Below are positions 38-11,364 of a stretch of DNA of 11,364 nt, piece after piece. The stretch covers positions 1 to 11,364 of the forward strand of contig JAYEIY010000142.1 of NCBI GenBank assembly GCA_034660375.1, read 5' to 3'. The notes below the pieces were generated by a model, which saw only the letters and a program-made list of their open reading frames with translations, had not been told where the DNA came from and ran no database searches. Each line of letters begins with the position of its first letter. The stretch's first letter is position 1. The DNA is from Verrucomicrobiota bacterium. GTDB lineage: Bacteria > Verrucomicrobiota > Lentisphaeria > UBA2565 > JAYEIY01. The translations under genes were made by a program, and so were the position numbers.

Positions 38-304
38 CTACTGATGACCTAGAACAACGCGAAAACCCAAGTTGCTGGACGTGCTCGACGGCGAGTAACG
101 GTTGCGATTCGCTGAGCGGCAACTCCAGGCAGTGTTGCTCCAGCAACCGCCACGAAAAACCCGGTACGAGGACGAAGAAACACCCTGTGAATCCGTAACA
201 CTACCCGAAGGATAATCTCCATACAAATCCGAACACCACTCCCAGACATTACCGCTCATATCATAAATTCCAAGTTCATTAGGCTTCGTTTGCCCCACTG
301 TGAC
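38..304 (-). pseudogene. In-frame continuation of the FGE/C-type-lectin-fold domain after the TAA at 305-307 (GNVWEW...YRVFRGGCW...RSANRNRY...GFRVVLGHQ*); carries the putative DGR variable region. Either the gene 38..2674 is an ochre-interrupted pseudogene, or the stop is suppressed or a sequencing error.
   Basis: Same reading frame as 305..2674 (both coordinates are 2 mod 3). The translation restores the canonical C-terminal FGE motifs (GxYDMSGNVWEW, RGGxW, RSAxR, GFR) directly after the stop. The track ORF begins at a GTG two codons after the TAA. Confidence 0.7.
41..250 (-). other. Putative DGR variable region (VR) at the 3' end of the kinase-FGE gene, followed (plus coordinates ~20-37) by a GC-rich stretch GCAACCAGAGGCTCAAGG that could act as IMH
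   Basis: Abrupt composition shift to ~53% GC in a ~33% GC context. The coding strand is only ~16% A (33 T in 210 nt on the plus strand) against ~31% T. Codons at the non-scaffold positions are NNC-type (agc aac act gcc tgg agt tgc cgc tca gcg aat cgc aac cgt tac tcg ccg tcg agc acg tcc agc aac), as expected if template AAC codons were adenine-mutagenized. They sit in the classic CLec-fold VR scaffold YRVxRGGxW...RSAxR...GFRVV. Confidence 0.55.
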
Positions 305-2674
305 TTATTTTATAATGACTGAACCCGAATATTTATAACCTCTGCTTTTTGTTCCGCCTTTAGCAGCATATTCCCACTCTGCTTCCGTTGGTAAACGATA
401 AATATAATCTTCTGGTAAACGACCTGCCTTGCGTTCTCTATAAGTAAGTTTCTTGCAAAAATATACCGCATTATTCCAAGACACTTGTTCTACTGGATAA
501 TTAGCGCGTTTAATATAGCTTGAATTATTGCCCATAACTCGTTGGTATTCTGCTTGCGTCACCTCATACTTTCCAATCCAAAAATCATTGGTCAGGGTTA
601 CTTTATGAACAGGCTTTTCGTCACTTTCTCCGTTATTTGAGCCCATCTGAAAACTACCCGATTCCACATACACAAACTCCATGCCAAAATCAGGAATTTC
701 CCAGATAAGTTTTTCCTCGGCAAACACCTTGAATTCTTTTGCCTTAATACTCGAAAAATCGATTTTTAGTGCGGACTTTGCAAATTTTAGCATATTTCTC
801 CAGTTTTCGGAACTTTTTGCGGACTCCCCAAGTGAAATTAATTCTGCTAACGGTAATAAATTTAGTGCTTTTTCCCATTTTTGTATGGATTCAGACCACT
901 TTTCATTTTTAGCGAGTTGTTTTGCGGAGTCCGCAGAAAATTTTACATTTGCGTAGTCCGCACCACCAAATTCGATAAGTTTTTTCTCATCTGTCTTGGA
1001 AAGTGCTTTTTTATAGGTATTTTCGGCAATATTTACTGATTTTGTACCTTCTGAATAGATTTTTGCCTTTTTGTATTCGTTTTGAGCATTTTTCCAGAGT
1101 TTTGCGGAGTCCGCAAAATTTTCTCCACTTTTAAATATTTCTTCGGCATTTTTTTTGAGGTTTTCTGCGTTATTCCACAGAATTTCCGCATATTTTGCGG
1201 ACTGTGCATTTTCTGCTATTTTTGCGGAGTCCGCACTGCTTCGTTTTGCATTCAGAGCAGTTGAGCGTTCTTTGTCGAGTTCTTGTATTTTTGCACACTC
1301 CGCAATTACACTCTGATAATTTTTTAGTGCATTTCCATAGGATTTTTGTTTATAGAATTCTTCTGCGGTTTTTATTGTTATTTTTATTTTCCTTAATTTT
1401 TCTTTAAATCCTTCTCCTGGTTTTATTTTCTGTGTGTCTTTCCAGAGAATCTCAGCGTTACTTTTTGTCGGTGCGGTCCTAGAGAGTCCCTGGGATTTTA
1501 TGGGAGTTGTGTTTTGGGGTGTTTTTGTTTGCAGATTGGCTATAGGTAGACCTTTGAAGTAAAATAGGGAACCACTTGCAAGAAGTAAGATGAGTAGAGA
1601 CAGTTTCAGTAATCTGCCTGAAGGCAGAAGGGGAACACCGCCTGAAGGCGGTACTACAAACTTTTTTCCGCCAACAGCATTCACAAAATCAGAGCATGAT
1701 GAAAAGCGTTCATTTGGATCTTTGGCAAGGGCAGTAAAGAGAAATTTGTTTTGTTTGCGTTTTAGTTCTGAGAGGGATTCGGGGGTTTGTTCTTTAGCGA
1801 CCTGCATCATTACAAATGGATCATTGGTTTCAAATGCAGATGCAAAGGGAACTGCACCGCTGATGAGTTCATAAAACGTTACTGCGAGTGCATATTGGTC
1901 GGTTTGTTCATTTTGATGCTTCCCTACCCATTGCTCAGGAGCCATATACGGACGCGTGCCGCTGGTGTCGCTTACCTGATTGGAAACTCGACTCATTGAA
2001 GAACGGATTTCTGCAGCAAGACCAAAATCCAGTACCTTGATTTTGCCATCCTCTGTAATCATTACATTAGATGGTTTTATATCACGATGAACTATCTTTT
2101 CACCGTGTGCAAAATCCAGTGCCGTGGCAACTGCAGAACAAATTTCGACTGCCTTTTCAAAAGGGACTTTTTTATCATCGAACTGTCGTCGCCAGGAAGA
2201 GACAGTAGAACCTTTGATGTACTCCATTATGACCAAATAACCACCCTGCCCTACTTTTAACAAATTTTCAGAAGACTCATCTATTTTTTCGATTTTATGA
2301 AGATGTTCAAGAGATGCAATATTGGGGTGTTTCAACTTACTGACAAGAGCAAAATTTTTCCTAACATTTTCGAGTTCTTCGGGATCTTGCGAAATAAGAG
2401 CCGGAAGTACTTTTATAGCAACATAAAGTTGTGAAATAGTGTCGAACGCAAGATAGACTGCTCCAAAACCACCTGCTCCGAGTTTATGAAAAAGTTTATA
2501 CCTATCTATGCATCCAAGAACTTCTTCTCCTTTTGGACCCTGCGGTCGCTCCGTAACCATAGTCCAGATAGAATTTTCTTCTGTTTCCAAAAAAGGTTCC
2601 TGAATATTATTATCAACAACCTCTTTTCCCATAGAATTTTTTGTCGTAAAATCGCCTAATGATTTATTTGTCAT
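305..2674 (-). CDS. Transmembrane Hanks-type Ser/Thr protein kinase fused to an extracytoplasmic alpha-helical repeat region and the N-terminal two-thirds of an FGE-sulfatase (SUMF1 / C-type-lectin-fold) domain; ends at an in-frame TAA
   Basis: Kinase motifs in the translation: GAGGFGAVY (P-loop), VAIK, HRDIKPSN (catalytic loop), DFGLA, PYMAPE. One hydrophobic TM helix LLKLSLLILLLASGSLFYF. Then ~330 aa of degenerate helical repeats with a recurring ADSAK motif. Then FGE-domain motifs MGS..DEKPVH.V, YRLPTEAEWEYAAKGG. Weak SD-like AAGGA about 12 nt upstream of the ATG. Stop TAA at 305-307. Confidence 0.85.
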   Translation of the reverse strand: MTNKSLGDFTTKNSMGKEVVDNNIQEPFLETEENSIWTMVTERPQGPKGEEVLGCIDRYKLFHKLGAGGFGAVYLAFDTISQLYVAIKVLPALISQDPEELENVRKNFALVSKLKHPNIASLEHLHKIEKIDESSENLLKVGQGGYLVIMEYIKGSTVSSWRRQFDDKKVPFEKAVEICSAVATALDFAHGEKIVHRDIKPSNVMITEDGKIKVLDFGLAAEIRSSMSRVSNQVSDTSGTRPYMAPEQWVGKHQNEQTDQYALAVTFYELISGAVPFASAFETNDPFVMMQVAKEQTPESLSELKRKQNKFLFTALAKDPNERFSSCSDFVNAVGGKKFVVPPSGGVPLLPSGRLLKLSLLILLLASGSLFYFKGLPIANLQTKTPQNTTPIKSQGLSRTAPTKSNAEILWKDTQKIKPGEGFKEKLRKIKITIKTAEEFYKQKSYGNALKNYQSVIAECAKIQELDKERSTALNAKRSSADSAKIAENAQSAKYAEILWNNAENLKKNAEEIFKSGENFADSAKLWKNAQNEYKKAKIYSEGTKSVNIAENTYKKALSKTDEKKLIEFGGADYANVKFSADSAKQLAKNEKWSESIQKWEKALNLLPLAELISLGESAKSSENWRNMLKFAKSALKIDFSSIKAKEFKVFAEEKLIWEIPDFGMEFVYVESGSFQMGSNNGESDEKPVHKVTLTNDFWIGKYEVTQAEYQRVMGNNSSYIKRANYPVEQVSWNNAVYFCKKLTYRERKAGRLPEDYIYRLPTEAEWEYAAKGGTKSRGYKYSGSVIIK
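816..1236. repeat. Intragenic DNA repeats inside the kinase gene: near-palindromic 15-mer TTTGCGGAGTCCGCA. Exact copies at 921-935, 1101-1115 and 1222-1236; variants at 816-830, 951-962 and 1186-1200. Each encodes an ADSAK motif of the helical-repeat region.
   Basis: Direct reading of the plus strand. The reverse complement tgcggactccgcaaa translates to A-D-S-A-K. Confidence 0.8.
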
Positions 2675-2675
2675 A

Positions 2676-3120
2676 TTATATTTTGTCCTTTGCTCTTAAT
2701 CATTTCCGCTCTACGAGCTAAGAAATACTTGCATTCGCAAATACCGTTCGGGGGCTCACTTTCCTGCCACATAATCATTCTGTCAATCCGCACTTCGCCC
2801 TTTCCATATCTTTTGCTCTTAATCATTTTGTCACATAATCATTTTGTCACATAATCATTCTGTCAATCTGTCCTTCGCCCTTAATCATTTCCGCTCTACG
2901 AGCTAAGAAATATTTGCATTCGCAAATACCGTTCGGGGGCTCACTTTCCTGTCACATAATCATTCTGTCAATCCGCACTTCGCCCTTTCCATATCTTTTG
3001 CTCTTAATCATTTTGCCACATAATTATTCTGTCAATCTGTCCTTCGCCCTTAATCATTTCCGCTCTACGAGCTAAGAAATACTTGCATTCGCAAATACCG
3101 TTCGGGGACTCACTTTCCTG
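2676..3120. repeat. Composite intergenic repeat block, about 2.5 tandem copies of a ~170-185-bp unit. Three copies of a 61-bp conserved element (2706-2766, 2891-2951, 3060-3120), with CACATAATCATT(C/T)TGTCAAT(C) modules (reverse-oriented GACAGAAT iterons), CTTCGCCC and ATCTTTTGCTCTTAATCATT modules.
   Basis: Sequence identity between copies is visible directly, e.g. ccgctctacgagctaagaaatacttgcattcgcaaataccgttcgggggctcactttcctg x3 with 1-2 substitutions. The last copy abuts, and supplies, the TGA stop of the downstream gene at 3121-3123. Confidence 0.9.
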
Positions 3121-4650
3121 TCACACACCCTTTTGTTCGGGCACTTCCAGTACTTCGCCAATAAAACTCTCCTTTGGAAGGTTTTTGAGTCCTCTGGTAA
3201 GCCAGATCCATTCATTTTGACCATCAGTTATTGCAAATGCATCATCTTGTCTGTATAGTTTCCATGGTGTATGAATCTCTGGGAATATTTCTGATAAAGG
3301 CAACCAGTGATTAAGGATTAGGTATTTTTCTTTTAATTCATCATATCTTTTCATTAGAATTGCGGAGAAAAATTCATTTTCAGTAATATTTTTTAAAAAC
3401 TTTCCTAAAAAGCCACTTTTTTTATCTTTACGCATCTTATAGATTTTTGTTTCAAGCGGAAAGCATGATGAACTGTCTCGTGGGGAGAGCGATAATTCAA
3501 AGTATCTCTTATCATTCAAAGAGATCTTATGCTTATTAATTTTTACTGCATTAATACATGTTTCTGAAACAGAACTCAGATTCTCAATAACAGCAAAGCT
3601 ATCATTTAGCTCAATTGATGCGTGAAGTTTGCTTATCGCCTGATTTTTTCTTCTCAATTTTTGATTACTCCAGTCTTCGCTCTCGTCCGGCAGATTTCTT
3701 GTTATTAAATCCATTTTTTTCTCTTTATAGTTTCGTGCTCTGCCCAGAGAGATCTTCTTTGAATAAAGCTGCAGAAAGCTCCCGTCATTCATTTTTAGTG
3801 TAAGGCGTTTATTTTTTTCAGAATTATATGGAATCTGCAAGTTTTTTTTCTCAAGATTTTCTGGAGGTTCTGCAAGGCAAAGGGCAACTTCTTGCCAGAG
3901 CGAAGATTTTCTTAACTCTTTAAAAAGCTCAATTGAAGAAATATCTTGTTTATTTTTCTTTAGTTCATCCAAAATAGGCAGGCGAATATCACCACCTGCT
4001 TTTTGTGATGTAATATCGCCAATATTTATACTCATATTTTCAAAAAGTTTACCCGCATCTTCATTTTCAGGATGAACCTCAATCTCTATTTGTTCAGAAA
4101 AACATTTTTCTTCTTTTTCCAATTCATAAATAAAGTAGACCCAAGCAGATTGCTCAGCACCTTTAGAGCCTGCCTTTGGTCTATAATTTACCTTGATTTC
4201 TCTTTTTGAAGAAATTCTTGAGTAACGGATATGTGCTTCCTTAAAACTTCCGTCAGGCAACTCTAAAATAAGCTTAAAATTCTCTGCGTTCTTTGCATTT
4301 GGGCTTTTGGGAATAATCCGAAATTGCAGGGCCGCCATATTTTTTTCAATAAAAACAGATGAACCAGCATTCCACTCAAGAGAAAAATCTTCACAATCTG
4401 AATCTAAGTTTGTATCAACTTCTTCTATAACTTTCTCTTCGTTTCGATTGATAATCCCGCAGATGCTTTCTTCGGAAATTTTGAGAGTTTTACTCTCTGA
4501 GAGCGCATCATTTGAGTCTTCGTTGAAATCACTTTTTTGAGGTCCCTGTTCGATATGGCTATCGTTATTTTCTACTTTTGTACCACATTCAGAACAAAAC
4601 AGTGCATCTTCCGATAATATTTCACTGCATTCCGGGCATTTAAAACTCAC
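3121..4650 (-). CDS. N-terminal zinc-ribbon (CPEC...CSECG) protein with a C-terminal FHA (forkhead-associated, phospho-Thr-binding)-like domain; likely partner of the adjacent Ser/Thr kinase
   Basis: 509-aa ORF with GTG start 7 nt after GGAGG. N-terminus CPECSEILSEDALFCSECG. FHA-like motifs: SLGRARN...DLITRN (GR loop), ISKLHASIEL (SxxH), NDSFAVIENLSSVSETCINAVKI...ISLNDKRYFEL. Stop TGA is embedded in the repeat module. Confidence 0.7.
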   Translation of the reverse strand: MSFKCPECSEILSEDALFCSECGTKVENNDSHIEQGPQKSDFNEDSNDALSESKTLKISEESICGIINRNEEKVIEEVDTNLDSDCEDFSLEWNAGSSVFIEKNMAALQFRIIPKSPNAKNAENFKLILELPDGSFKEAHIRYSRISSKREIKVNYRPKAGSKGAEQSAWVYFIYELEKEEKCFSEQIEIEVHPENEDAGKLFENMSINIGDITSQKAGGDIRLPILDELKKNKQDISSIELFKELRKSSLWQEVALCLAEPPENLEKKNLQIPYNSEKNKRLTLKMNDGSFLQLYSKKISLGRARNYKEKKMDLITRNLPDESEDWSNQKLRRKNQAISKLHASIELNDSFAVIENLSSVSETCINAVKINKHKISLNDKRYFELSLSPRDSSSCFPLETKIYKMRKDKKSGFLGKFLKNITENEFFSAILMKRYDELKEKYLILNHWLPLSEIFPEIHTPWKLYRQDDAFAITDGQNEWIWLTRGLKNLPKESFIGEVLEVPEQKGV

Positions 4651-4680
4651 TGAATACCTCCTTTTATTTTAACTGCCAAT

Positions 4681-4716
4681 TTGACAGAATTATTAAGAGC
4701 AAAAGATCTATTTTAT
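4681..4716. repeat. Single forward-oriented module TTGACAGAATTATTAAGAGCAAAAGATCTATTTTAT, 30 bp upstream (coding sense) of the FHA-protein start
   Basis: Matches the iteron plus AAGAGCAAAAGAT modules seen at 2800-2830 (inverted), 6676-6840, 10036-10068 and 10851-10882. Confidence 0.8.
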
Positions 4717-5164
4717 ATCTTTGAACTAGGGCTGAAAGCGCGCAATAAAACAATCTCTAAATTCATAAAAAATTTTCTCAGATTGTGTTTTTATCCATTT
4801 TGAAGAAGAAGTCTTTATTTCTTCCAATAATTTTGCTGGTGCAATCTTTTTTGATATTTGACATAGTATATGAACGTGGTCATTAATCCTGCCGATAATT
4901 ATTGAGGGTGAATTCTGTTTTTCACAAATTGTAGCTACATATACATGTAAATTTGCTTGCAGTTTCTCCAGAATAATTACCCGTTCAGTTCAATTTATGT
5001 GAAATCTAATATGTGTATAGCTGTGATAATGATTGTGCCATATTTATTACGGGTCTTCAGCCCTCTTATTCTTGTTACATCCGTTTTCCCGAAGCGTTGT
5101 CCCGGGCTATGGAATTATGGGCCTTCTTCGTCCTTATCCGTGTTTATCCGTGTCCATCTGTGGT

Positions 5165-6652
5165 TTACCTATTAATATTACTCCTATTTTTTGCTACTTC
5201 GGCGTTGGCATCAAGGGCCTTTTCCATAATTTTTTCAAGTCTATCTGAATTTTCTTTTATTATTTTTTCTCTTTCTTCGTATCCTTTATTTTCTGCTTCC
5301 ATCATTGCTGCGAGAGCCTTTGCGGCTTCTGGCGAACTTTCTGCAGCTACAGCAAGACGTTCTTCAGGTGTCATTAATTTTTTGTCATCCTGTTGCTTAA
5401 ATTTGAGTAGTCTTTGAGCCTCTTCTTCAGGCAGTGCAGCAATCATTTCTTTTATATCGTGTTTTGAATACATTTCTAGCTTTGCTTTTTGATCATCGCG
5501 AGTTATTTGTTGCTTCTGTTGTTTTATCTTTAACCAGTCTTCAGTTTCTTTTAGTTCTTGATTATGCGTTCTATCCTGCTGATCAAGTCCCTGAGTAAAC
5601 TGCAAGTCTTCGAGTTCAAGTTGATGCAATCCATCTTTTTTATCTATTTCATGATTATGAACCTGCTTTAAGACCTGCATTTCATGTTCCATATTCTCAC
5701 GGCTTACTCCGTATTCATGAAGAAGTTGTTCTTCATACATTTTGAGATCATTATCCGACTTTATTTCATCCATTTCATCCGCACGAACAGCATCACGAAG
5801 ACGCTTTTTCAGAACATTTTCACGGCATCTTATTTCTATATCACCGGATTTCTTACGCAATTCTTCATAATCTTCTCCGTAAAACTGAATGGCGGCAACC
5901 CTCACCTCTTCTATTCCTAAATGCTTAGATGTTTTATTAATGACATCAGCAAGAGAATCTTCGAACGCACTTCTTACGTCAGAAGATTTAATTAAATCAT
6001 CAATATTAGTCGAATTAGTCAAATTTTTGACAGCCTGAGATACATCACGCTCTACTACTTCTGTTATTTGCTGATAAGTTACCTGTCTGGAATCTTTCAT
6101 CAAATTATTAATAAGTTCATCGATTCTTTTTAAATTAAACTGAAAAACTGATTCAGTATAAAAACTCAATTCCATATCTTCTTTGGAGCGAAGTCCCTTC
6201 TTTTGAAAAGGCAAGATAATTTCACCACTATCAACCAATAAAATACTCTTTATGGCAGAGGAAAAGATGCTGGCAAATATCCCGTCTTTCAAAGAATATT
6301 TGCCGGCTTCAATAACTTTTGACACCTTTGCATCTTTGAGAACAACAATTGCGGTTCCAGGCTGAATAATAAGAAAATTTTTTACATTGCGTCTTATGTC
6401 AGCGACCTCGATTCGTTGCAAAAATGCTTCCGGCGGACGATTGATTATATTTCCAGTTACAAGTTTGCGTTCTTCTGGATGCAATCTGCTTTTGCAATGC
6501 GGACAAAATTCAGATTCCACACCGACCCATTTATCACAAGTTCCGCACTTGCTCCAGCCCTTTGGTGCCGGCTCTCCGCATTTACTACAAAATCTAGCAC
6601 GCTTTTTTACAGTATGACCACATTTTTCACACTTATTACTAAAAATACCCAT
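5165..6652 (-). CDS. Double zinc-ribbon / SPFH (band-7, stomatin-prohibitin-flotillin family) domain protein with a long C-terminal coiled coil
   Basis: 495-aa ORF. ATG is 8 nt after GGAGG. N-terminus CEKCG...FCSKCG...CGTCDK...CPHCK. SPFH-like core IEVADIRRNVKNFLIIQPGTAIVVL ... GIEEVRVAAIQF. C-terminal ~200 aa is charged heptad-rich (EEQLLHEY...KETEDWLKIKQQKQQ). Stop TAA. Confidence 0.8.
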   Translation of the reverse strand: MGIFSNKCEKCGHTVKKRARFCSKCGEPAPKGWSKCGTCDKWVGVESEFCPHCKSRLHPEERKLVTGNIINRPPEAFLQRIEVADIRRNVKNFLIIQPGTAIVVLKDAKVSKVIEAGKYSLKDGIFASIFSSAIKSILLVDSGEIILPFQKKGLRSKEDMELSFYTESVFQFNLKRIDELINNLMKDSRQVTYQQITEVVERDVSQAVKNLTNSTNIDDLIKSSDVRSAFEDSLADVINKTSKHLGIEEVRVAAIQFYGEDYEELRKKSGDIEIRCRENVLKKRLRDAVRADEMDEIKSDNDLKMYEEQLLHEYGVSRENMEHEMQVLKQVHNHEIDKKDGLHQLELEDLQFTQGLDQQDRTHNQELKETEDWLKIKQQKQQITRDDQKAKLEMYSKHDIKEMIAALPEEEAQRLLKFKQQDDKKLMTPEERLAVAAESSPEAAKALAAMMEAENKGYEEREKIIKENSDRLEKIMEKALDANAEVAKNRSNINR

Positions 6653-6675
6653 GATAAATCCTCCTTTTATTTATT

Positions 6676-6840
6676 TTGACAGAATTATTATGTGACAGAA
6701 TTATTAAGAACAAAGAGCTTATTTTTTTTATTGACAGAATTATTATGTGACAGAATTATTAAGAACAAAGAGCTTATTTTTTTTATTGACAGAATTATTA
6801 TGTGACAGAATCATTAAGAACAAGAGCCTATTTTTTTATT
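6676..6840. repeat. Perfect tandem repeat, 3 x 55 bp (TTGACAGAATTATTATGTGACAGAATTATTAAGAACAAAGAGCTTATTTTTTTTA). Each unit has two 13-bp iterons GACAGAATTATTA and a T8 homopolymer. It sits immediately upstream of the SPFH gene start on the opposite strand.
   Basis: Copies start at 6676, 6731 and 6786. Copies 1 and 2 are identical; copy 3 has about 3 changes. Confidence 0.95.
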
Positions 6841-7006
6841 TTTTTTATTTGAACTTCTTTATTATTAAAATTTATCCAAATCAGACTATTCAAATTAGTA
6901 TGTAACAATAAACGCTGAATATTATTCTTATAATTTTCCTGTTTTCTAGAAATAGCAGATAAATGAAAAGCTGTTGTTGTATTTAATAAATGGAATTTTT
7001 GTTTAC

Positions 7007-7627
7007 CTATCTTTTTTTATCCACATAAATATCAACAGAATGTATCACTTTTTCTGAACCTCCGAGAAAGAATACCAAAGCTTCGTTGTATAAATTTATA
7101 TCTAAAAAAACTCCCCAATTATTAAGTAACTCAGTTAATATGTTCAGTAACATTGCACTTTCAGAATCCCTATCCTCAAAATTTTTATTATTAATTGAAA
7201 ATCGTTTTCTTGATTGAAAATCCAAAGATGTAGAAACGAATTTATATTCTACCGACAGGGGCGTAAAATTAATTAATTTACCATGCCTTACATTAGTTAA
7301 TAATAAATAGTTTATTAATTGATTTTGATGAAACTCATTCAACTTTTCTACAGTTTTCAATTCATAAATAATGGAGTTTTCAACAACTAAATCTAAAAAG
7401 TAAGTTTTTCTGAAATTTTTGTAAATAATATGAATAGGAATTTCTTTTTCTACTTTTAAACCTATATTTTTACATAAAATACTCAATTGAGTCTGATAAA
7501 TATCTTCGTTGCAAAAACGTCCCAATTCGTTATGAATTTCATATACCTGCCCCATAACTAAGTAATCAATTTCATGAAATTGATTTTGATTTATTACTTT
7601 TATTTTTTCTCTACATTCAAACGCCAT
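7007..7627 (-). CDS. GxxExxY-family protein (PD-(D/E)XK nuclease-like superfamily)
   Basis: 206 aa. N-terminal pattern EIDYLVMGQVYEIHNELGRFCNEDIYQTQLSILCKNIGLKVEKEIPIHIIYK...YFLDLVVENSIIYELKTVEKL...HQNQLINYLLLTNVRHGKLINF. It matches the family architecture recalled from memory: (YKIIG..VY..LG.GLLE..Y...L...GL.VE...P..Y.G...RLDLLVE...IVELK.VE...H.AQLL.YL.....GLLINF), including the D...ExK core. Stop TAG. Confidence 0.65.
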   Translation of the reverse strand: MAFECREKIKVINQNQFHEIDYLVMGQVYEIHNELGRFCNEDIYQTQLSILCKNIGLKVEKEIPIHIIYKNFRKTYFLDLVVENSIIYELKTVEKLNEFHQNQLINYLLLTNVRHGKLINFTPLSVEYKFVSTSLDFQSRKRFSINNKNFEDRDSESAMLLNILTELLNNWGVFLDINLYNEALVFFLGGSEKVIHSVDIYVDKKR

Positions 7628-7628
7628 A

Positions 7629-7855
7629 TCCTTCGCCCTTAATTATTCTGTCACTTAATCATTCTGTCAATCTGTCCTTCGCCCTTTCCTATCTTTTGCC
7701 CTTAATTATTCCCGCTCTACGAGCTAAGAAATACTTGCATTCGCAAATACCGTTCGAGGGCTCACTTTCCTGCCACTTAATCATTCTGTCAATCTGTCCT
7801 TCGCCCTTAATTATTCTGTCAATCTGTCCTTCGCCCTTAATCATTCTCTTGATTT
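7629..7855. repeat. Composite intergenic repeat block: CTTCGCCC modules, reverse-oriented iterons (AATTATTCTGTCACTTAATCATTCTGTCAATCTG), and the fourth copy of the 61-bp element (7722-7772)
   Basis: Direct sequence identity to 2676-3120 modules: ccgctctacgagctaagaaatacttgcattcgcaaataccgttcgagggctcactttcctg. Confidence 0.9.
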
Positions 7856-8755
7856 TTACCAAAGTTTGGTTTTTCCCGTAGAAAAAATTGCTTTGAGATT
7901 ATTGCTTTGTGTTGAACTAGAAGCCTTAAATGCTAAAGAGATAAATTGTTCTACCTGCTTGTCTGTATCTTTTATTTTCTTGATTTTCTTAAAATCTTTT
8001 GCTTCTATATATTCATAAATTATTCCGCTAGGATAGACATCCTTTATGTACATAATATGAATTTTTATTATTTCCCAATTGTTTTCAAGCAAGCGACAAG
8101 TAATAATCCCTGTTTTTCCCGACAAGGTATTTACAAGTGTATCTACTTTTCTCTGGAGCCCACTTACGCTAGTTCCAAAGGCATTCTGCAAGACTTTTGC
8201 ATCAAGGACAATTTCTGTAGAAGCAATACTCGCAATGACTTTGTTACAGGATCTATTTACATGTGGGAGGACTTCTGATGTAAGTTTTTTAATAACTTCT
8301 CTTTTAGCATTGTCTTCTCCTACAACTCTTTCACTCATAGCAGTAATTTGTTCACGAGCCAACAAGTATTCTCTATTTAATCTGACAGATAGATCCAATT
8401 GTCCTTTGTAGACATAGTATGATGCATATTTATTAAATAGTTTATTATCACAATCCATATCAACTGTTACAAAAGGAGTCTCAGTTACAACGAGTTTAAA
8501 TCCAAGTCTGGCAATCTCACCCTCGACTTTCCTGACTAAATCATTGTCATTGCCTTCAACTTTAAGAGGAATTTTTCTTGGTTGAATTGATGCAATTTTT
8601 TGTAGTCCAAGCAAGCCACCTGAGTCACTTTTAGCTTGTGCAGTTCTTATAATTACTGCTGTTTGAGCTGTTGCTACAGTCTGCTCAACTCTTTTGGGAG
8701 TACGAGCGCAACCTACGAATACGAGTACTGCGATTAATAAAACTAGATTTCTCAT
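7856..8755 (-). CDS. Lipoprotein of unknown function (signal peptide MRNLVLLIAVLVFVGC, lipobox VFVGC)
   Basis: 299-aa ORF. ATG is 8 nt after AAGGAGA. Starts 14 bp downstream of the stop of the 8770..9990 gene, so probably co-transcribed with it. No recognisable catalytic motifs. Confidence 0.7.
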   Translation of the reverse strand: MRNLVLLIAVLVFVGCARTPKRVEQTVATAQTAVIIRTAQAKSDSGGLLGLQKIASIQPRKIPLKVEGNDNDLVRKVEGEIARLGFKLVVTETPFVTVDMDCDNKLFNKYASYYVYKGQLDLSVRLNREYLLAREQITAMSERVVGEDNAKREVIKKLTSEVLPHVNRSCNKVIASIASTEIVLDAKVLQNAFGTSVSGLQRKVDTLVNTLSGKTGIITCRLLENNWEIIKIHIMYIKDVYPSGIIYEYIEAKDFKKIKKIKDTDKQVEQFISLAFKASSSTQSNNLKAIFSTGKTKLW

Positions 8756-8769
8756 TTGTTTCTCCTTTA

Positions 8770-9990
8770 TTATCTTATTTGAGTCATTTTTTTAAGAATA
8801 AAAATTGCCAACACAAGGGCAATCAACGCAGCGACAACACCACCTGCAATCATTAAAATAGTCTTGTTATCTTTAATTGCTTTTTTTACTTTATAATCGG
8901 GGGTACGCTCAGCTGTATCAATAAATTGACCAGTTACTGTCTTGCCCCAGAGAAGTTGATTATTTTTAAAATTTCTTAGCGAAAATGCAACTGTTATACT
9001 ATATTCTTTCTGATCTTTTGCTTTATTGTCTTTCTGTTCAAGATTTTTTACTACTCCGGTCATATAAAGATTTTCTTTTGAAATTTTAGTTGTAACTCCG
9101 GAAGCACCGCTTTCCGTTCCTATATCAAAAACCTGCTCGACCTGCTTCATCATTCTTTTTATCTCCCGCATATCCGGTAGAGTTCCGGAACCTGCACCCG
9201 CAAGATCCAATGCAATAGAATGTGCAACTCTTTTATTTTGTGGATTTGAAGGACTAGAGAAAAATGCAAGCTTTGTGTTCCCAACAGCCACAATCTCTGA
9301 CAAAATAGTATCTGTAAGCTGATCTGCTTTTTCTCCAATAAGAGGAAGTACAAAAACATTGCCGTCAGGAATTTGTGATATTTTTTCCTGCAAATCTTTC
9401 AAAGCATTTTGACCAAGATTTTCCGCTGCAAAAAGTAGGCCTTTTGAAATATTTTCCAGTTTCATTATTTTATGCTCGCCAACTATATTTCCTGACCACA
9501 GTATCTTTTGAGATCTTAGATCCTGTAGAGTCAATGTAACCCTAAAGATTCCAGAACCATCTACAACCGTGGCCTCAAGAACTTTTCCATACAAATATGC
9601 TTCTACACCTTGTTTTTTGGTCTTTTCCAATGAAAGAAAAGTATCAAGATCAATTGTTGATTCCTGTCCCATAAGAGCTAACTCAAGCTCAGACCCTGAA
9701 AATGCATCAGTTTCCATTTCCGACATCCTACGTTCGGCTTCATCTCTTGTAATAAATTCATACTCTCCAGGAACCCTTAACAATCCTCCCCTAAACACAA
9801 AGTTCATCTCCTTTGCACCCGCAATTCCTAGAAATGCGATTTTTTTGACATCCACCTTGCGTTTTGTCAACTCCTTGATTGTTTTGAATGCCGCATCTTC
9901 CGCTGCATAGTCAATCTCTCTTTCCGCCGCCGAGATTAAAAATCCAGCACACACGAGTAACACCATTAATACTTTTCTTGCTTGTTTCAT
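8770..9990 (-). CDS. Exported protein of unknown function with an N-terminal signal peptide and a C-terminal transmembrane anchor (ILMIAGGVVAALIALVLAIFIL)
   Basis: 406-aa ORF. ATG is 8 nt after GGAGG. Hydrophobic N-terminus MKQARKVLMVLLVCAGFLISAA. Ends with tandem stops TAA TAA. Confidence 0.7.
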   Translation of the reverse strand: MKQARKVLMVLLVCAGFLISAAEREIDYAAEDAAFKTIKELTKRKVDVKKIAFLGIAGAKEMNFVFRGGLLRVPGEYEFITRDEAERRMSEMETDAFSGSELELALMGQESTIDLDTFLSLEKTKKQGVEAYLYGKVLEATVVDGSGIFRVTLTLQDLRSQKILWSGNIVGEHKIMKLENISKGLLFAAENLGQNALKDLQEKISQIPDGNVFVLPLIGEKADQLTDTILSEIVAVGNTKLAFFSSPSNPQNKRVAHSIALDLAGAGSGTLPDMREIKRMMKQVEQVFDIGTESGASGVTTKISKENLYMTGVVKNLEQKDNKAKDQKEYSITVAFSLRNFKNNQLLWGKTVTGQFIDTAERTPDYKVKKAIKDNKTILMIAGGVVAALIALVLAIFILKKMTQIR

Positions 9991-10035: not shown

Positions 10036-10068
10036 TTGACAGAATAATTATGTGACAGAATAATTAAG
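10036..10068. repeat. Forward-oriented double iteron TTGACAGAATAATTATGTGACAGAATAATTAAG, between the vapC stop and the start of the 406-aa gene
   Basis: Same 13-mer / 16-bp period architecture as 6676-6840. Confidence 0.85.
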
Positions 10069-10171: not shown

Positions 10172-10558
10172 TTAATAAAGCAAAAGTCCATCAATATTCT
10201 TAAAGTGCTTATCAAGTGTAAACAATGCTAACCCATATTGAATAGTTGTTGCTGCAATCCAAATATCATTGGTGGGAATAGGTTTGCCTTTTTCTTTCAA
10301 CTGCTTAAAAACAGAAGCATAAATTTCGGATGTTGTTTCATATAAAGACAAAAAATCAACACGTGGAGTATCTAGAAATTCCTCCAAGTAATAAATATTC
10401 TGTTTTTCTTTATTTCCCAATTAAAAACCAGAATAAATTTCTCCTAAAATTATTGCCGAAATGCCTATGTACTCTGTAGATTTTTATACCTTTATCACTT
10501 CAGGATTATTTCTCTTGAATTCAGAATAAATATTAGTGTCTATTAATATTTTTTTCAT
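10172..10558 (-). pseudogene. vapC: vapC-like PIN-domain toxin interrupted by two in-frame TAA codons (10484-10486 and 10421-10423), with no frameshift
   Basis: Conceptual translation in one frame: MKKILIDTNIYSEFKRNNPEVIKV*KSTEYIGISAIILGEIYSGF*LGNKEKQNIYYLEEFLDTPRVDFLSLYETTSEIYASVFKQLKEKGKPIPTNDIWIAATTIQYGLALFTLDKHFKNIDGLLLY. Typical VapC motifs: ILIDTN, SAI.LGE, NDIWIAATA. Its ATG overlaps the vapB stop as ATGA. Confidence 0.7.
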
Positions 10559-10850: not shown

Positions 10851-10882
10851 ATTGACAGAATTATCAAGAGCTAAGAAGCTCT
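10851..10882. repeat. Single forward iteron module ATTGACAGAATTATCAAGAGCTAAGAAGCTCT upstream of vapB
   Basis: Matches the TTGACAGAAT..ATTAAGAGC module family. Confidence 0.75.
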
Positions 10883-10917: not shown

Positions 10918-10981
10918 CTATGGTAACTCGCTCCTCGCAACCATAGGCTGTATTATTCATATCCCACCGCGATGCGGTGGG
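10918..10981 (+). other. GC-rich structured segment: stem-loop CTATGGT-(15 nt)-ACCATAG (10918-10946) and an 8-bp GC hairpin CCCACCGC-gat-GCGGTGGG (10963-10981)
   Basis: Inverted repeats read directly. Unusually GC-rich for this window. Confidence 0.5.
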
Positions 10982-10992
10982 CTACGGTGAAT

Positions 10993-11013
10993 ATCCCCGT
11001 TGGGGATTTTTTT
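10993..11013 (+). terminator. Rho-independent terminator-like hairpin ATCCCC-gtt-GGGGAT followed by T7, plus-strand orientation
   Basis: Stem 6 bp, loop 3 nt, then run of 7 T. On the minus strand it is preceded by the A-run, not followed by U-run. Confidence 0.55.
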
Positions 11014-11241
11014 CTTATCCACGTTCCACGATAACACCGTATTCATCCCTAAAAGGGATATCTCAATAAGTTCCCATTCCAAAGACCTTCCATTTATGAT
11101 TTTTTTTATACCTAATAGATAAATACATTAATTTGTATCCTTATTTTTCTAATCTTTTGTTCTTCAAAAATTCCTATATCAAAAGTACCTAATGTCTTTT
11201 TATTGAAACTTGTTTTTTGTTTTTGACCTGAAAGGTTATTT

Positions 11242-11277
11242 TATATTAGCCCAGGGTTTAAACCCTGGGTTAATATA
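11242..11277. other. 36-bp near-perfect palindrome TATATTAGCCCAGGGTTT|AAACCCTGGGTTAATATA (core 20-bp perfect palindrome 11250-11269)
   Basis: Reverse complement of the left half equals the right half except for one position. Confidence 0.8.
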
Positions 11278-11287
11278 AAAAATATAG

Positions 11288-11308
11288 TTTGCCCTGCAAG
11301 GGCATTTT
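11288..11308. terminator. Hairpin GCCCT-gca-AGGGC flanked by TTT and ATTTT; possible bidirectional terminator closing a minus-strand ORF that enters from beyond the window end
   Basis: 5-bp GC stem with T-tracts on both sides. The minus strand shows an ORF tail ...FLKKYNIDYDEKYVWD* ending at 11314. Confidence 0.4.
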
Positions 11309-11364
11309 ATAAATTAATCCCATACATATTTTTCATCGTAATCTATATTGTATTTCTTCAGGAA

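Follow-up and report, generated by a model that had tools for sequence, protein, structure and literature searches.

Four near-identical copies of a 61-bp element lie within a single 11,364-nt stretch of a Verrucomicrobiota genome (contig JAYEIY010000142.1, the whole of which we call the window), raising the question of whether the element is kept constant by selection or has simply been copied recently along with the DNA around it. On the plus strand we find four copies, each with at most one substitution relative to the query, and 200 dinucleotide-preserving shuffles of the sequence yield none:

2706..2766, plus strand: 61-mer copy 1, no mismatches; read on the opposite (gene-sense) strand, it lies 31 nt before the kinase start codon
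2891..2951, plus strand: 61-mer copy 2, C23T
3060..3120, plus strand: 61-mer copy 3, G48A, abutting the FHA stop codon at 3121-3123
7712..7772, plus strand: 61-mer copy 4, G46A, on the outer side of the GxxExxY cassette's 5' arm and 40 nt from it

The sequence-only reading from which we started had claimed four such copies, and at 0-1 mismatches to the query this is borne out; its starts at 2706, 2891 and 3060 are correct, while 7722 for the fourth copy is a slip for 7712. The copies are also GC-richer, as it had said, at 49-51% GC compared with 35.5% for the window, and the 61-mer is both the longest and the most GC-rich module of a mosaic repeat. Where a genome is AT-rich, structured RNA genes typically stand out by a GC content like this one (about 50% in a genome of 35.5%), and in that respect the composition counts against treating the 61-mer as a passenger. 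The substitutions are of the same kind: all five are transitions, and on the minus strand all but one either keep a predicted pair (G.U to A-U, U-A to U.G, G-C to A-U) or lie in a loop. That they are all transitions and mostly preserve minus-strand pairs is a second observation on that side.

Is the 61-mer better conserved than its surroundings? The sequence-only reading had held that it is far better conserved than the surrounding modules and had taken this level of conservation to suggest a small RNA, a protein-binding site or a recombination site. The copies sit in two arrays, the first of which was delimited by repeat-family analysis:

2684..3125: tandem array taking up all of the FHA-kinase gap, stop codon to start codon
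2684-2868 (185 nt), 2869-3037 (169 nt) and 3038-3125 (partial): units of the tandem array
7628..7855: module array separating the 299-aa gene (stop) from the GxxExxY gene (start)

Between tandem units the 61-mer is identical at 60/61 positions, and the remainder of the unit at 106/108 (98%) with one 16-nt indel. The dispersed copy gives a similar picture. The segment 7640-7845, with copy 4 inside it, is collinear with 2836-3058 over 177/189 identical positions (93.7%) and two module-sized indels; here the 61-mer matches the array at 59/61 positions and its flanks at 118/128, a difference that is not significant (Fisher p=0.34). Divergence from consensus is likewise 1.7% for the 16-nt modules (over 14 fixed positions) and 1.2% for the 61-mer. 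The claim of exceptional conservation is therefore not borne out, and with flanks equally conserved the function derived from it is unsupported. Uniformly high identity over a longer duplicated segment, which the same reading had named as the alternative, is what we find for the three tandem copies and essentially what we find for the dispersed one. Because the 61-mer is as conserved as the recently duplicated DNA around it, its conservation is by itself no evidence of function; the near-identity of four copies here is a cautionary example of recent duplication and not selection.

The array also contributes to both neighbouring genes, and the sense strand of all genes here is the minus strand. 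The stop of the FHA reading frame (3121-3123) adjoins copy 3, which ends at 3120, and the TCACA that holds this stop also follows the 61-mer in copy 2. The last codons and the TGA of this gene had been attributed to the end of the 61-mer; the stop and the last one or two codons do lie in repeat sequence, with the stop abutting copy 3. This repeat-derived gene end supports the further suggestion of recombination at the 3' end of FHA, with the repeat array joining at the extreme terminus of the gene. Truncation of FHA by the insertion is ruled out: the protein is full length, and alignments with homologs of 463-523 aa stop only a few residues short of its C-terminus. On the other side, the AAGGA ribosome-binding sequence of the kinase gene comes from the array. 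Most likely, both the FHA stop and the kinase ribosome-binding site were supplied by accident. The array has stops in the translated gene-sense reading frame. A 51-aa upstream reading frame (2826->2671, ending in ATGA over the kinase start) was rejected as a gene, having no ribosome-binding site and starting inside a module. Stop-codon reassignment for in-frame TAA codons is ruled out because TAA ends the 406-aa and Band7 genes at near-homolog lengths.

What, then, are the surrounding modules? The 16-nt module TGACAGAATNATTAWG occurs in 21 copies in this 11-kb contig where 0.12 are expected, all of them intergenic, and it is not self-complementary. Some copies stand apart from the 61-mer:

4682..4697, plus strand: solo 16-nt module just upstream of the FHA start
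10037..10068, plus strand: solo double 16-nt module just upstream of the 406-aa gene
10853..10868, plus strand: solo 16-nt module with 1 mismatch, upstream of the RHH antitoxin gene

The 61-mer keeps a constant orientation in all four copies and always lies beside arm-type modules. It breaks the 16-mer at TGRCAG^AAT, a breakpoint identical in the three copies with a module there; at that place copy 3, next to the FHA gene, has no more than TGTGACAG. The exactness of this breakpoint would also suit targeted insertion, and as such counts against a passenger origin. The 61-mer begins CCGCTC... and finishes ...TTCCTG, which do not form an inverted repeat, and we find no target-site duplication at the TGRCAG^AAT junction. 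At 7638-7669 a double module is uninterrupted. Double 16-mers match a sigma-70-type consensus at 10-11/12 positions, a match to consensus only; the 61-mer itself does not match in this way, and it separates the two hexamers, leaving TTGACA-17-GAAAGT. A sigma-54 promoter (TGGCAG-N5-TGAGC) was rejected, with a GG-to-GC spacing off by one and no GG in copies 2-3.

Sequence comparison shows that the modules around the 61-mer are homologous to those forming the arms of a gene cassette next to copy 4:

6831..7627, minus strand: long-form GxxExxY (PF13366 / TIGR04256) PD-(D/E)XK nuclease gene with one frameshift near 7013-7022
7638..7671, minus strand: 5' inverted-repeat arm, two tandem 16-mers; TTGACA-17-AATAAT, 11/12 of a sigma-70-type consensus
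6785..6818, plus strand: 3' inverted-repeat arm, 819 nt away from the 5' arm (7638-7671) and 91% complementary to it
6676..6837, plus strand: three tandem 55-nt units, each a 3' arm plus spacer

The GxxExxY protein is split by the frameshift into residues 1-205 in one frame and 203-266 in the next. It matches PF13366 / TIGR04256 with the D-E-x-K residues invariant, and its fold matches the Cas4, CinB and AdnAB nucleases. This is a large family whose function was listed as unknown in a 2012 survey of PD-(D/E)XK proteins (PMC3424549). The arrangement is not peculiar to the window: long-form GxxExxY genes are framed by arms in seven independent loci at 38-53% protein identity, and the same module, through its 13-nt core, forms inverted tandem pairs around the genes of the relatives L013, L014, L017, L019, L020 and L021. 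Five loci with a TGACA core hold exactly four cores each, with none outside the arms in the 6-21 kb examined around the cassettes; L020 has a GCAGAAT variant instead. Arm length ranges from 26 to 56 nt; the two arms of a locus are separated by 808-824 nt and show 82-92% complementarity (5 loci including the window), and lineage-specific variants tend to be common to both arms of a locus, most clearly in L020, L019 and the window. The cassettes occupy tight gaps between co-directional genes (addB|addA and TMP-TENI|DinG-like in Opitutae and Victivallales genomes, and 299-aa|Band7 in the window). A search for GxxExxY paralogs in the same genome gave a closest match only 53% identical, and viral contigs hold no GxxExxY relatives. 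Our literature search found no report linking GxxExxY with flanking repeats, nor the module sequence, and the association of gene and arms appears to be undescribed so far.

The 61-mer has no such distribution. We find no relative of it in the genome, metagenome, viral, plasmid, phage or E. coli collections searched, which includes BLAST of the 185-nt unit against plasmids and phages and of the 61-mer against E. coli. Exact-pattern scans with a 22-mer from the right half give 0 matches in genome, viral and metagenome collections; a 20-mer from the left half gives 0 viral matches and a single metagenome match (L012). We reject the latter as a relative: its contig has 56% GC, the match falls in the codons for the N-terminus of an ABC ATPase, and the similarity goes no further than the 20-mer; by our estimate, a database this large should contain about one such match by chance. 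Reading frames translated across the 61-mer match nothing in a set of 5.8 billion proteins, and an nhmmer profile of the four copies, run against all fetched loci, recovers only the end of a Logan contig from the same sample.

We consider it reasonably probable that the 61-mer is a module of a lineage-specific mosaic repeat derived from cassette arms and not an independently selected element, and most likely that its copying is recent. Other readings of the same sequence deserve weighing against this. The 61-mer could be a minus-strand small RNA or 5'-leader element, expressed from the hybrid promoter TTGACA-17-GAAAGT that its insertion would have created, with predicted hairpins GUAUUUGC-GAAU-GCAAGUAU and GCUC-GUA-GAGC upstream of the kinase and GxxExxY genes. 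Its GC-rich island would suit such an RNA, and so would a central stem of 8 pairs that, because of G.U pairs, forms on the minus strand only; substitutions mostly keep pairs on that strand and break two on the plus strand. The stem-loops proposed in the sequence-only reading are partly present, namely GCTC-TAC-GAGC and TTGC-ATTC-GCAA, while CCG-TT-CGG, with its 2-nt loop, cannot form as an RNA hairpin. Yet the folding energy is no better than that of shuffled sequence (z = -0.7 on the plus strand, -0.5 on the minus), and the covariation consists of one double change among 4 near-identical sequences, a measure reached by 249/500 shuffles and one for which four copies provide no power. Rfam gives no match over the 61-mer in a scan of the whole window (E<=1) and only noise of 17 bits or less over 2660-3140 at E<=10; an ARAGORN tRNA/tmRNA search returns 0 genes, and there is no intrinsic terminator in the 61-mer on either strand or after it. 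The spacing of TTGACA 17 nt upstream of GAAAGT is seen in copies 1, 2 and 4, but GAAAGT matches only 3/6 positions of the -10 consensus and copy 3 has no upstream TTGACA. With the 61-mer also missing from every relative, we regard an RNA as unlikely.

Somewhat less likely again is a DNA site for a protein, either a regulator or the GxxExxY nuclease, centred on the inverted repeat TA(C/T)TTGC-ATTC-GCAAATA. Its two halves, 7-8 bp long and 4 bp apart, match perfectly in copy 2, and the constant orientation beside arm-type modules would fit a candidate site; so short a palindrome is not unusual in 61 nt, however, no equivalent lies beside the arms of six related cassettes, and a conservation indistinguishable from that of the flanks argues against it. 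About equally improbable, in our estimate, is that the 61-mer is a miniature mobile insertion in its own right, which, like derivatives of the IS200/IS605 type, would enter its target (the TGRCAG/AAT junction of the 16-mer) without duplicating it. The shared breakpoint favours this, the uninterrupted double module would be its 'empty' equivalent, and the left-hand neighbouring module of copy 4 differs in type from that of copies 2-3. Nevertheless, we see neither terminal inverted repeats nor a target-site duplication, the element lacks a subterminal hairpin at each end, and at 59-61 nt it is, to our knowledge, shorter than the known derivatives of this type. Moreover, copy 4 and the array share collinear flanks over about 200 nt, so that one segmental copy accounts for both. 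We give very little weight to a short-read mis-assembly of the array or its copy number. The contig itself begins within a repeat, and the Logan contigs, assembled independently from the same run, are broken at modules and within the 61-mer; but each copy has its own substitution, the FHA/61-mer junction is reproduced in a Logan contig (an independent assembly of the same reads), and homologous cassette arms in other assemblies mark the modules as biological.

As a module of the arm-derived mosaic, the 61-mer would have spread as follows. A stretch of about 200 nt, comprising an arm and its flank with the 61-mer included, would also have been placed in the FHA-kinase gap, possibly through ectopic recombination, or because the nuclease helped to copy a solo arm along with its flank. 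There it would have been amplified about 2.5-fold in tandem, probably by slippage or unequal recombination between 16-mers, which fits because the indels are of module size. The TGA of FHA, the AAGGA of the kinase and the split of a promoter-like double module would then be by-products of the position of the array. By itself, the 61-mer is an unremarkable repeat module specific to this lineage.

More tentatively, and with somewhat less than even confidence, we suggest that long-form GxxExxY genes and their inverted tandem 13-16-nt modules constitute a previously undescribed selfish cassette, whose arms proliferate as ORF-less arrays much as REP/REPIN depend on RAYT but driven by a PD-(D/E)XK nuclease, the 61-mer being hitch-hiking flank DNA copied with a solo arm. 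On this view the cassette may be mobile and its nuclease may take part. In the boldest version, the 61-mer may be an RNA or binding site added in this lineage to control the cassette. The GxxExxY family thereby gains a testable hypothesis: the nuclease would recognise the modules that flank its own gene, and the repeats would have proliferated in a genome where pseudogenes are also seen.

The closest parallel is REP/REPIN with RAYT, in which a gene is flanked by inverted copies of a repeat that is also scattered intergenically (Bertels & Rainey 2011, PMC3116915; PMC3337134; PMC5581495). Likewise, the GxxExxY gene is flanked by inverted copies of a dispersed repeat (arms 82-92% complementary), is syntenic across one group of related genomes (L013-L019), and shares its repeat with intergenic DNA, although the scattered copies are seen in the window and not near the relatives' cassettes. 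The differences are equally clear: RAYT is a Y1/HUH transposase of the IS200/IS605 type whereas the GxxExxY protein has a PD-(D/E)XK nuclease fold, REP is a 20-40-nt imperfect palindrome with a GTAG/CGTC head and a hairpin while the present module is non-palindromic, 13-16 nt long and in tandem pairs, and the dispersed copies form direct arrays in place of the inverted doublets of REPIN. Enterobacterial BIMEs offer a second comparison, being intergenic mosaics of few short motifs in variable order and number, with longer non-palindromic motifs between repeats, the position held here by the 61-mer. In BIMEs, palindromic units alternate in opposite orientation and bind IHF and gyrase; the modules here are direct repeats. 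MITE-like repeats such as Neisseria Correia elements and RUP/BOX are lineage-specific, high-copy and intergenic, and can donate promoters, ribosome-binding sites and stop codons. The present repeat similarly is lineage-specific and intergenic and gives a stop codon and a ribosome-binding site to its neighbours, but the 61-mer, unlike MITEs, lacks terminal inverted repeats and a target-site duplication. Finally, as with Rickettsia palindromic elements, the repeats overlap coding-region ends in a genome that is low in GC and contains pseudogenes; the Rickettsia elements insert in frame inside genes, whereas here the repeat-derived part is the stop codon and the last one or two codons only. A practical consequence follows from the abundance of the arm modules: since they occupy nearly every intergenic gap in this genome (11 kb examined), assemblies of this organism break between genes.

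The window is a whole contig of 11,364 nt from a metagenome-assembled genome labelled Verrucomicrobiota bacterium (locus tags U9O87_*, proteins MEA2012300/302), and its minus strand carries every credible gene:

38-298, minus strand, FGE-sulfatase fragment
305-2674, minus strand, Ser/Thr kinase-FGE gene
3121-4650, minus strand, zinc-ribbon/FHA gene
5165-6652, minus strand, Band7/double-zinc-ribbon gene
7007-7627, minus strand, GxxExxY gene (PF13366 / TIGR04256)
7856-8755, minus strand, 299-aa gene
8770-9990, minus strand, 406-aa LpoB-like gene
minus strand, PIN fragment and RHH antitoxin gene

The same genes are found on independent Logan contigs from the same run (SRR26901932). These contigs terminate within repeat sequence; one breaks off after 25 nt of the 61-nt element (the 61-mer) beside the FHA stop. 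At the start of the window, positions 1-19 read (ATTAATC)x2.7, similar to the right half of the 16-nt module described below, and the assembly break there evidently falls within a repeat.

All four copies of the 61-mer reported in the sequence-only reading are recovered on the plus strand with 0-1 mismatch each, while none was matched in 200 shuffles; three start where it placed them (2706, 2891 and 3060), and the fourth starts at 7712 rather than 7722. The element is indeed GC-richer (49-51%, against 35.5% for the window) and varies at three positions (C23T, G48A, G46A). The claim that it is far better conserved than its surroundings, however, does not survive alignment. The tandem units that hold copies 1-3 measure 185, 169 and 88 nt, the last being partial. 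Units 1 and 2 agree at 60/61 positions in the 61-mer and at 106/108 of the other aligned positions, and differ by a single indel exactly as long as one 16-nt module; unit 3 is identical to unit 2 at 86/88. Similarly, around copy 4, 7640-7845 is collinear with 2836-3058 (177/189, 93.7%, with two module-sized indels), and here the 61-mer matches at 59/61 and the flanks at 118/128 (Fisher p=0.34). For the three tandem copies, and essentially also for the dispersed one, what we find is the longer duplicated segment that the same reading had named as evidence against itself. For the 16-nt module, TGACAGAATNATTAWG, we count 21 copies (<=2 mismatches) where 0.12 would be expected, always in intergenic DNA and in both orientations; it departs from its consensus at 1.7% of positions (its two free positions omitted), compared with 1.2% for the 61-mer. 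The surroundings looked poorly conserved because modules are shuffled and gained or lost as indels, not because substitutions are more frequent there. Since the flanks are equally conserved, the proposed step from conservation to function (a small RNA, a binding site or a recombination site) is unsupported; such a role is possible but unlikely.

The 61-mer itself was also searched for signs of function. Rfam returns no match over the 61-mer in the whole window (E<=1) and only noise of <=17 bits for the array alone (E<=10), ARAGORN finds no tRNA or tmRNA, and the 61-mer contains no terminator-like site; translated in the gene-sense frame, the array is not coding. The minimum free energy is ordinary on both strands (z = -0.7 on the plus strand, -0.5 on the minus strand). 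In the RNAalifold prediction for the minus strand there are two hairpins, a central one of 8 bp that includes two G.U pairs and a GCUC/GAGC one of 4 bp; a third stem-loop suggested earlier, CCG-TT-CGG, cannot form with a loop of only 2 nt. Substitutions mostly retain the pairs on the minus strand and break two on the plus strand, which is at most a hint of an RNA fold: with four sequences, the observed covariation is reached by 249 of 500 shuffles. Nor does the 61-mer have relatives elsewhere. Its halves, searched as exact 22-mers and 20-mers, were absent from genome, viral and metagenome collections apart from one metagenome match, which we reject as chance: it falls on the opening codons of an ABC ATPase gene in a GC-rich contig. 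Neither BLAST searches of plasmids, phages and E. coli nor a protein-space search with spurious ORFs across the 61-mer gave a match, and the sole match of a profile search over all fetched loci was a contig end from the same sample.

The array fills the gap between the FHA and kinase genes. The stop codon of the FHA gene, said to come from a 61-mer copy, does lie directly after copy 3 (3121-3123), in a TCACA that also follows copy 2. Homologs of 463-523 aa align with the 509-aa FHA protein to within a few residues of its C-terminus; no more than the final codons can therefore have been replaced by the array, and the gene is not truncated. At the other end, the array begins 10 nt before the kinase ATG, and its TCCTT (2686-2690) provides the only Shine-Dalgarno-like AAGGA of the kinase gene, 11 nt from the start codon.

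Where does this repeat DNA come from? When loci gathered for other purposes were scanned, the module turned out to flank GxxExxY genes. In Victivallales-like loci (L013-L019), whose GxxExxY proteins are 50-53% identical to that of the window, two tandem modules (TTGACAGAATCATTTTTGACAAAATCATT...) stand 13-26 nt ahead of the ATG and two in inverted orientation follow the gene, overlapping its stop codon or just beyond. The same arrangement holds in L020, a more distant member (49% identical, GCAGAATGAT variant), and in an Opitutae member (L021-L025, 38% identity) between addB- and addA-like genes. Each locus carrying the 13-nt core has exactly four copies of it, with no further core within up to 20 kb. 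The arms that these module pairs form measure 26-56 nt, show 82-92% complementarity and are separated by 808-824 nt; those of the window (6785-6818 and 7638-7671; 91% complementary, 819 nt apart) share this geometry. Both arms of a locus tend to share its lineage-specific variants (the central base is C in L013-L018 but G in L019, L020 combines GCAG with the spacer GTRCGG, and the window has a 16-nt period with ATTAWG). For most loci, the highest-scoring partner of the 5' arm is the 3' arm beside the same gene. Seven more family members have module-encoded peptides at their annotated termini (e.g. NDSVTNDSV, NHSA, GRMI, QNH). Of the 12 positions in the sigma-70 consensus TTGACA-17-AATNAT, the double 16-mer agrees at 10-11, a match to consensus only, and the 61-mer separates the two hexamers.

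The gene and its arms form a cassette. The cassette is placed exactly in the addB-like/addA-like gap in the Opitutae loci L021-L025 (2958-3827), while in L013-L019 it has TMP-TENI on one side and a DinG-like helicase gene on the other; judging by these placements, cassettes settle where co-directional genes leave little room between them. The GC content of the cassette is 20-30%, against 33-45% around it, and the corresponding gap of the nearest relatives with the LpoB-like, 386-aa and Band7/DZR cluster has neither GxxExxY gene nor modules, which together suggest that the cassette was inserted. The GxxExxY gene of the window is one frameshift (near 7013-7022, in an A/T homopolymer) short of the usual ~265 aa, leaving an ORF of 206 aa with the remaining ~60 codons intact in the next frame; once restored, the reading runs to 6831, immediately beside the 3' arm. 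The frameshift could be sequencing error, decay or slippage. D79, E89 and K91 are invariant across 113 family sequences, and the predicted fold (pLDDT 96.9) is two-lobed, with Cas4, CinB and AdnAB nuclease domains as best PDB matches. The function of PDDEXK_3 is listed as unknown (Steczkiewicz et al., 2012, PMC3424549), and we found no paper linking GxxExxY to flanking repeats.

The arrays holding all four copies of the 61-mer have their modules in the 5'-arm orientation (on the gene-sense strand, TGACAGAAT). Copy 4 lies outside the resident cassette, 40 nt from its 5' arm, and the FHA/kinase array, as the collinear alignment shows, contains a copy of the arm (2836-2867) together with this flank. 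The 61-mer interrupts a 16-mer at a fixed point, TGRCAG^AAT, with neither terminal inverted repeats nor a target duplication. Most likely, the 61-mer is a passenger module within repeat DNA that descends from the GxxExxY arms. In the simplest history, which we consider fairly probable, one arm and its flank segment would have been copied between the two gaps, followed by tandem amplification through slippage or unequal exchange between 16-mers.

In its possible mode of working, the closest parallel is REP/REPIN-RAYT (PMC3116915, PMC3337134, PMC5581495), where inverted repeat copies likewise flank a gene and the repeat is scattered in intergenic DNA, as here within the 11 kb of the window. However, the protein there is a Y1 transposase and here a PD-(D/E)XK nuclease, the cassette repeat lacks the defining palindrome, and its dispersed copies are direct arrays, so the cassette does not belong to that class. 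BIMEs have a mosaic build similar to the array; the features of a MITE are not seen. The wider association of arms and GxxExxY genes is of more interest than the 61-mer itself.

Related modules occur in other settings. In L003 (Chlamydiota MAG CSMAG_474, another PVC genome; 2531-2775), a GC-rich stretch of roughly 170 nt, with a possible long-range stem and no Rfam match, lies between opposite-orientation modules. L004 (MAG CSMAG_1684; 4228-4534) has a solo double module between uvrC and a heptosyltransferase gene, with a copy of CGGTGCGGTGCGGGATGAA on either side. Beyond the PVC group, L005 (Candidatus Fimisoma, Firmicutes; 3150-3235) has a direct array of related CAGAATGA cores (GCAGAATGACCAAG, GCAGAATCACCAAG) without an adjoining GxxExxY gene.

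Elsewhere in the window, an in-frame TAA (305-307, minus strand; region 296-307) divides the FGE-sulfatase domain of the kinase gene, and ORFs 305-2674 and 38-298 share one frame; the FGE region appears shorter than typical FGE domains. The PIN/VapC gene (10172-10557), downstream of the RHH antitoxin gene, has two in-frame TAA and no frameshift, leaving an ORF of only the 82-aa tail; because TAA still terminates other genes of the window, the gene has decayed and the genetic code is unaltered. A palindromic hairpin at 11224-11283 matches Rfam Acido-Lenti-1 at 33.9 bits, slightly below the gathering score of 37, and 10960-11310 holds more GC-rich hairpins. A 513-nt gap (4651-5164) with no credible ORF separates the Band7 gene from the FHA gene, its right part (about 5040-5165) somewhat GC-richer with a TTATCCGTGT x2 repeat. 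Within the kinase gene (804-1235), TTTTGCGGAGTCCGCA occurs 4-5 times at spacings of 27-285 nt; this repeat is coding (...ADSAK...) and its core is palindromic. Genes for an LpoB-like lipoprotein, a 300-390-aa protein, a Band7/double-zinc-ribbon protein, an FHA protein and an FGE-domain kinase also cluster in distant relatives (L006/L007 and an ERZ1426829 contig), and the cluster may be one functional system.
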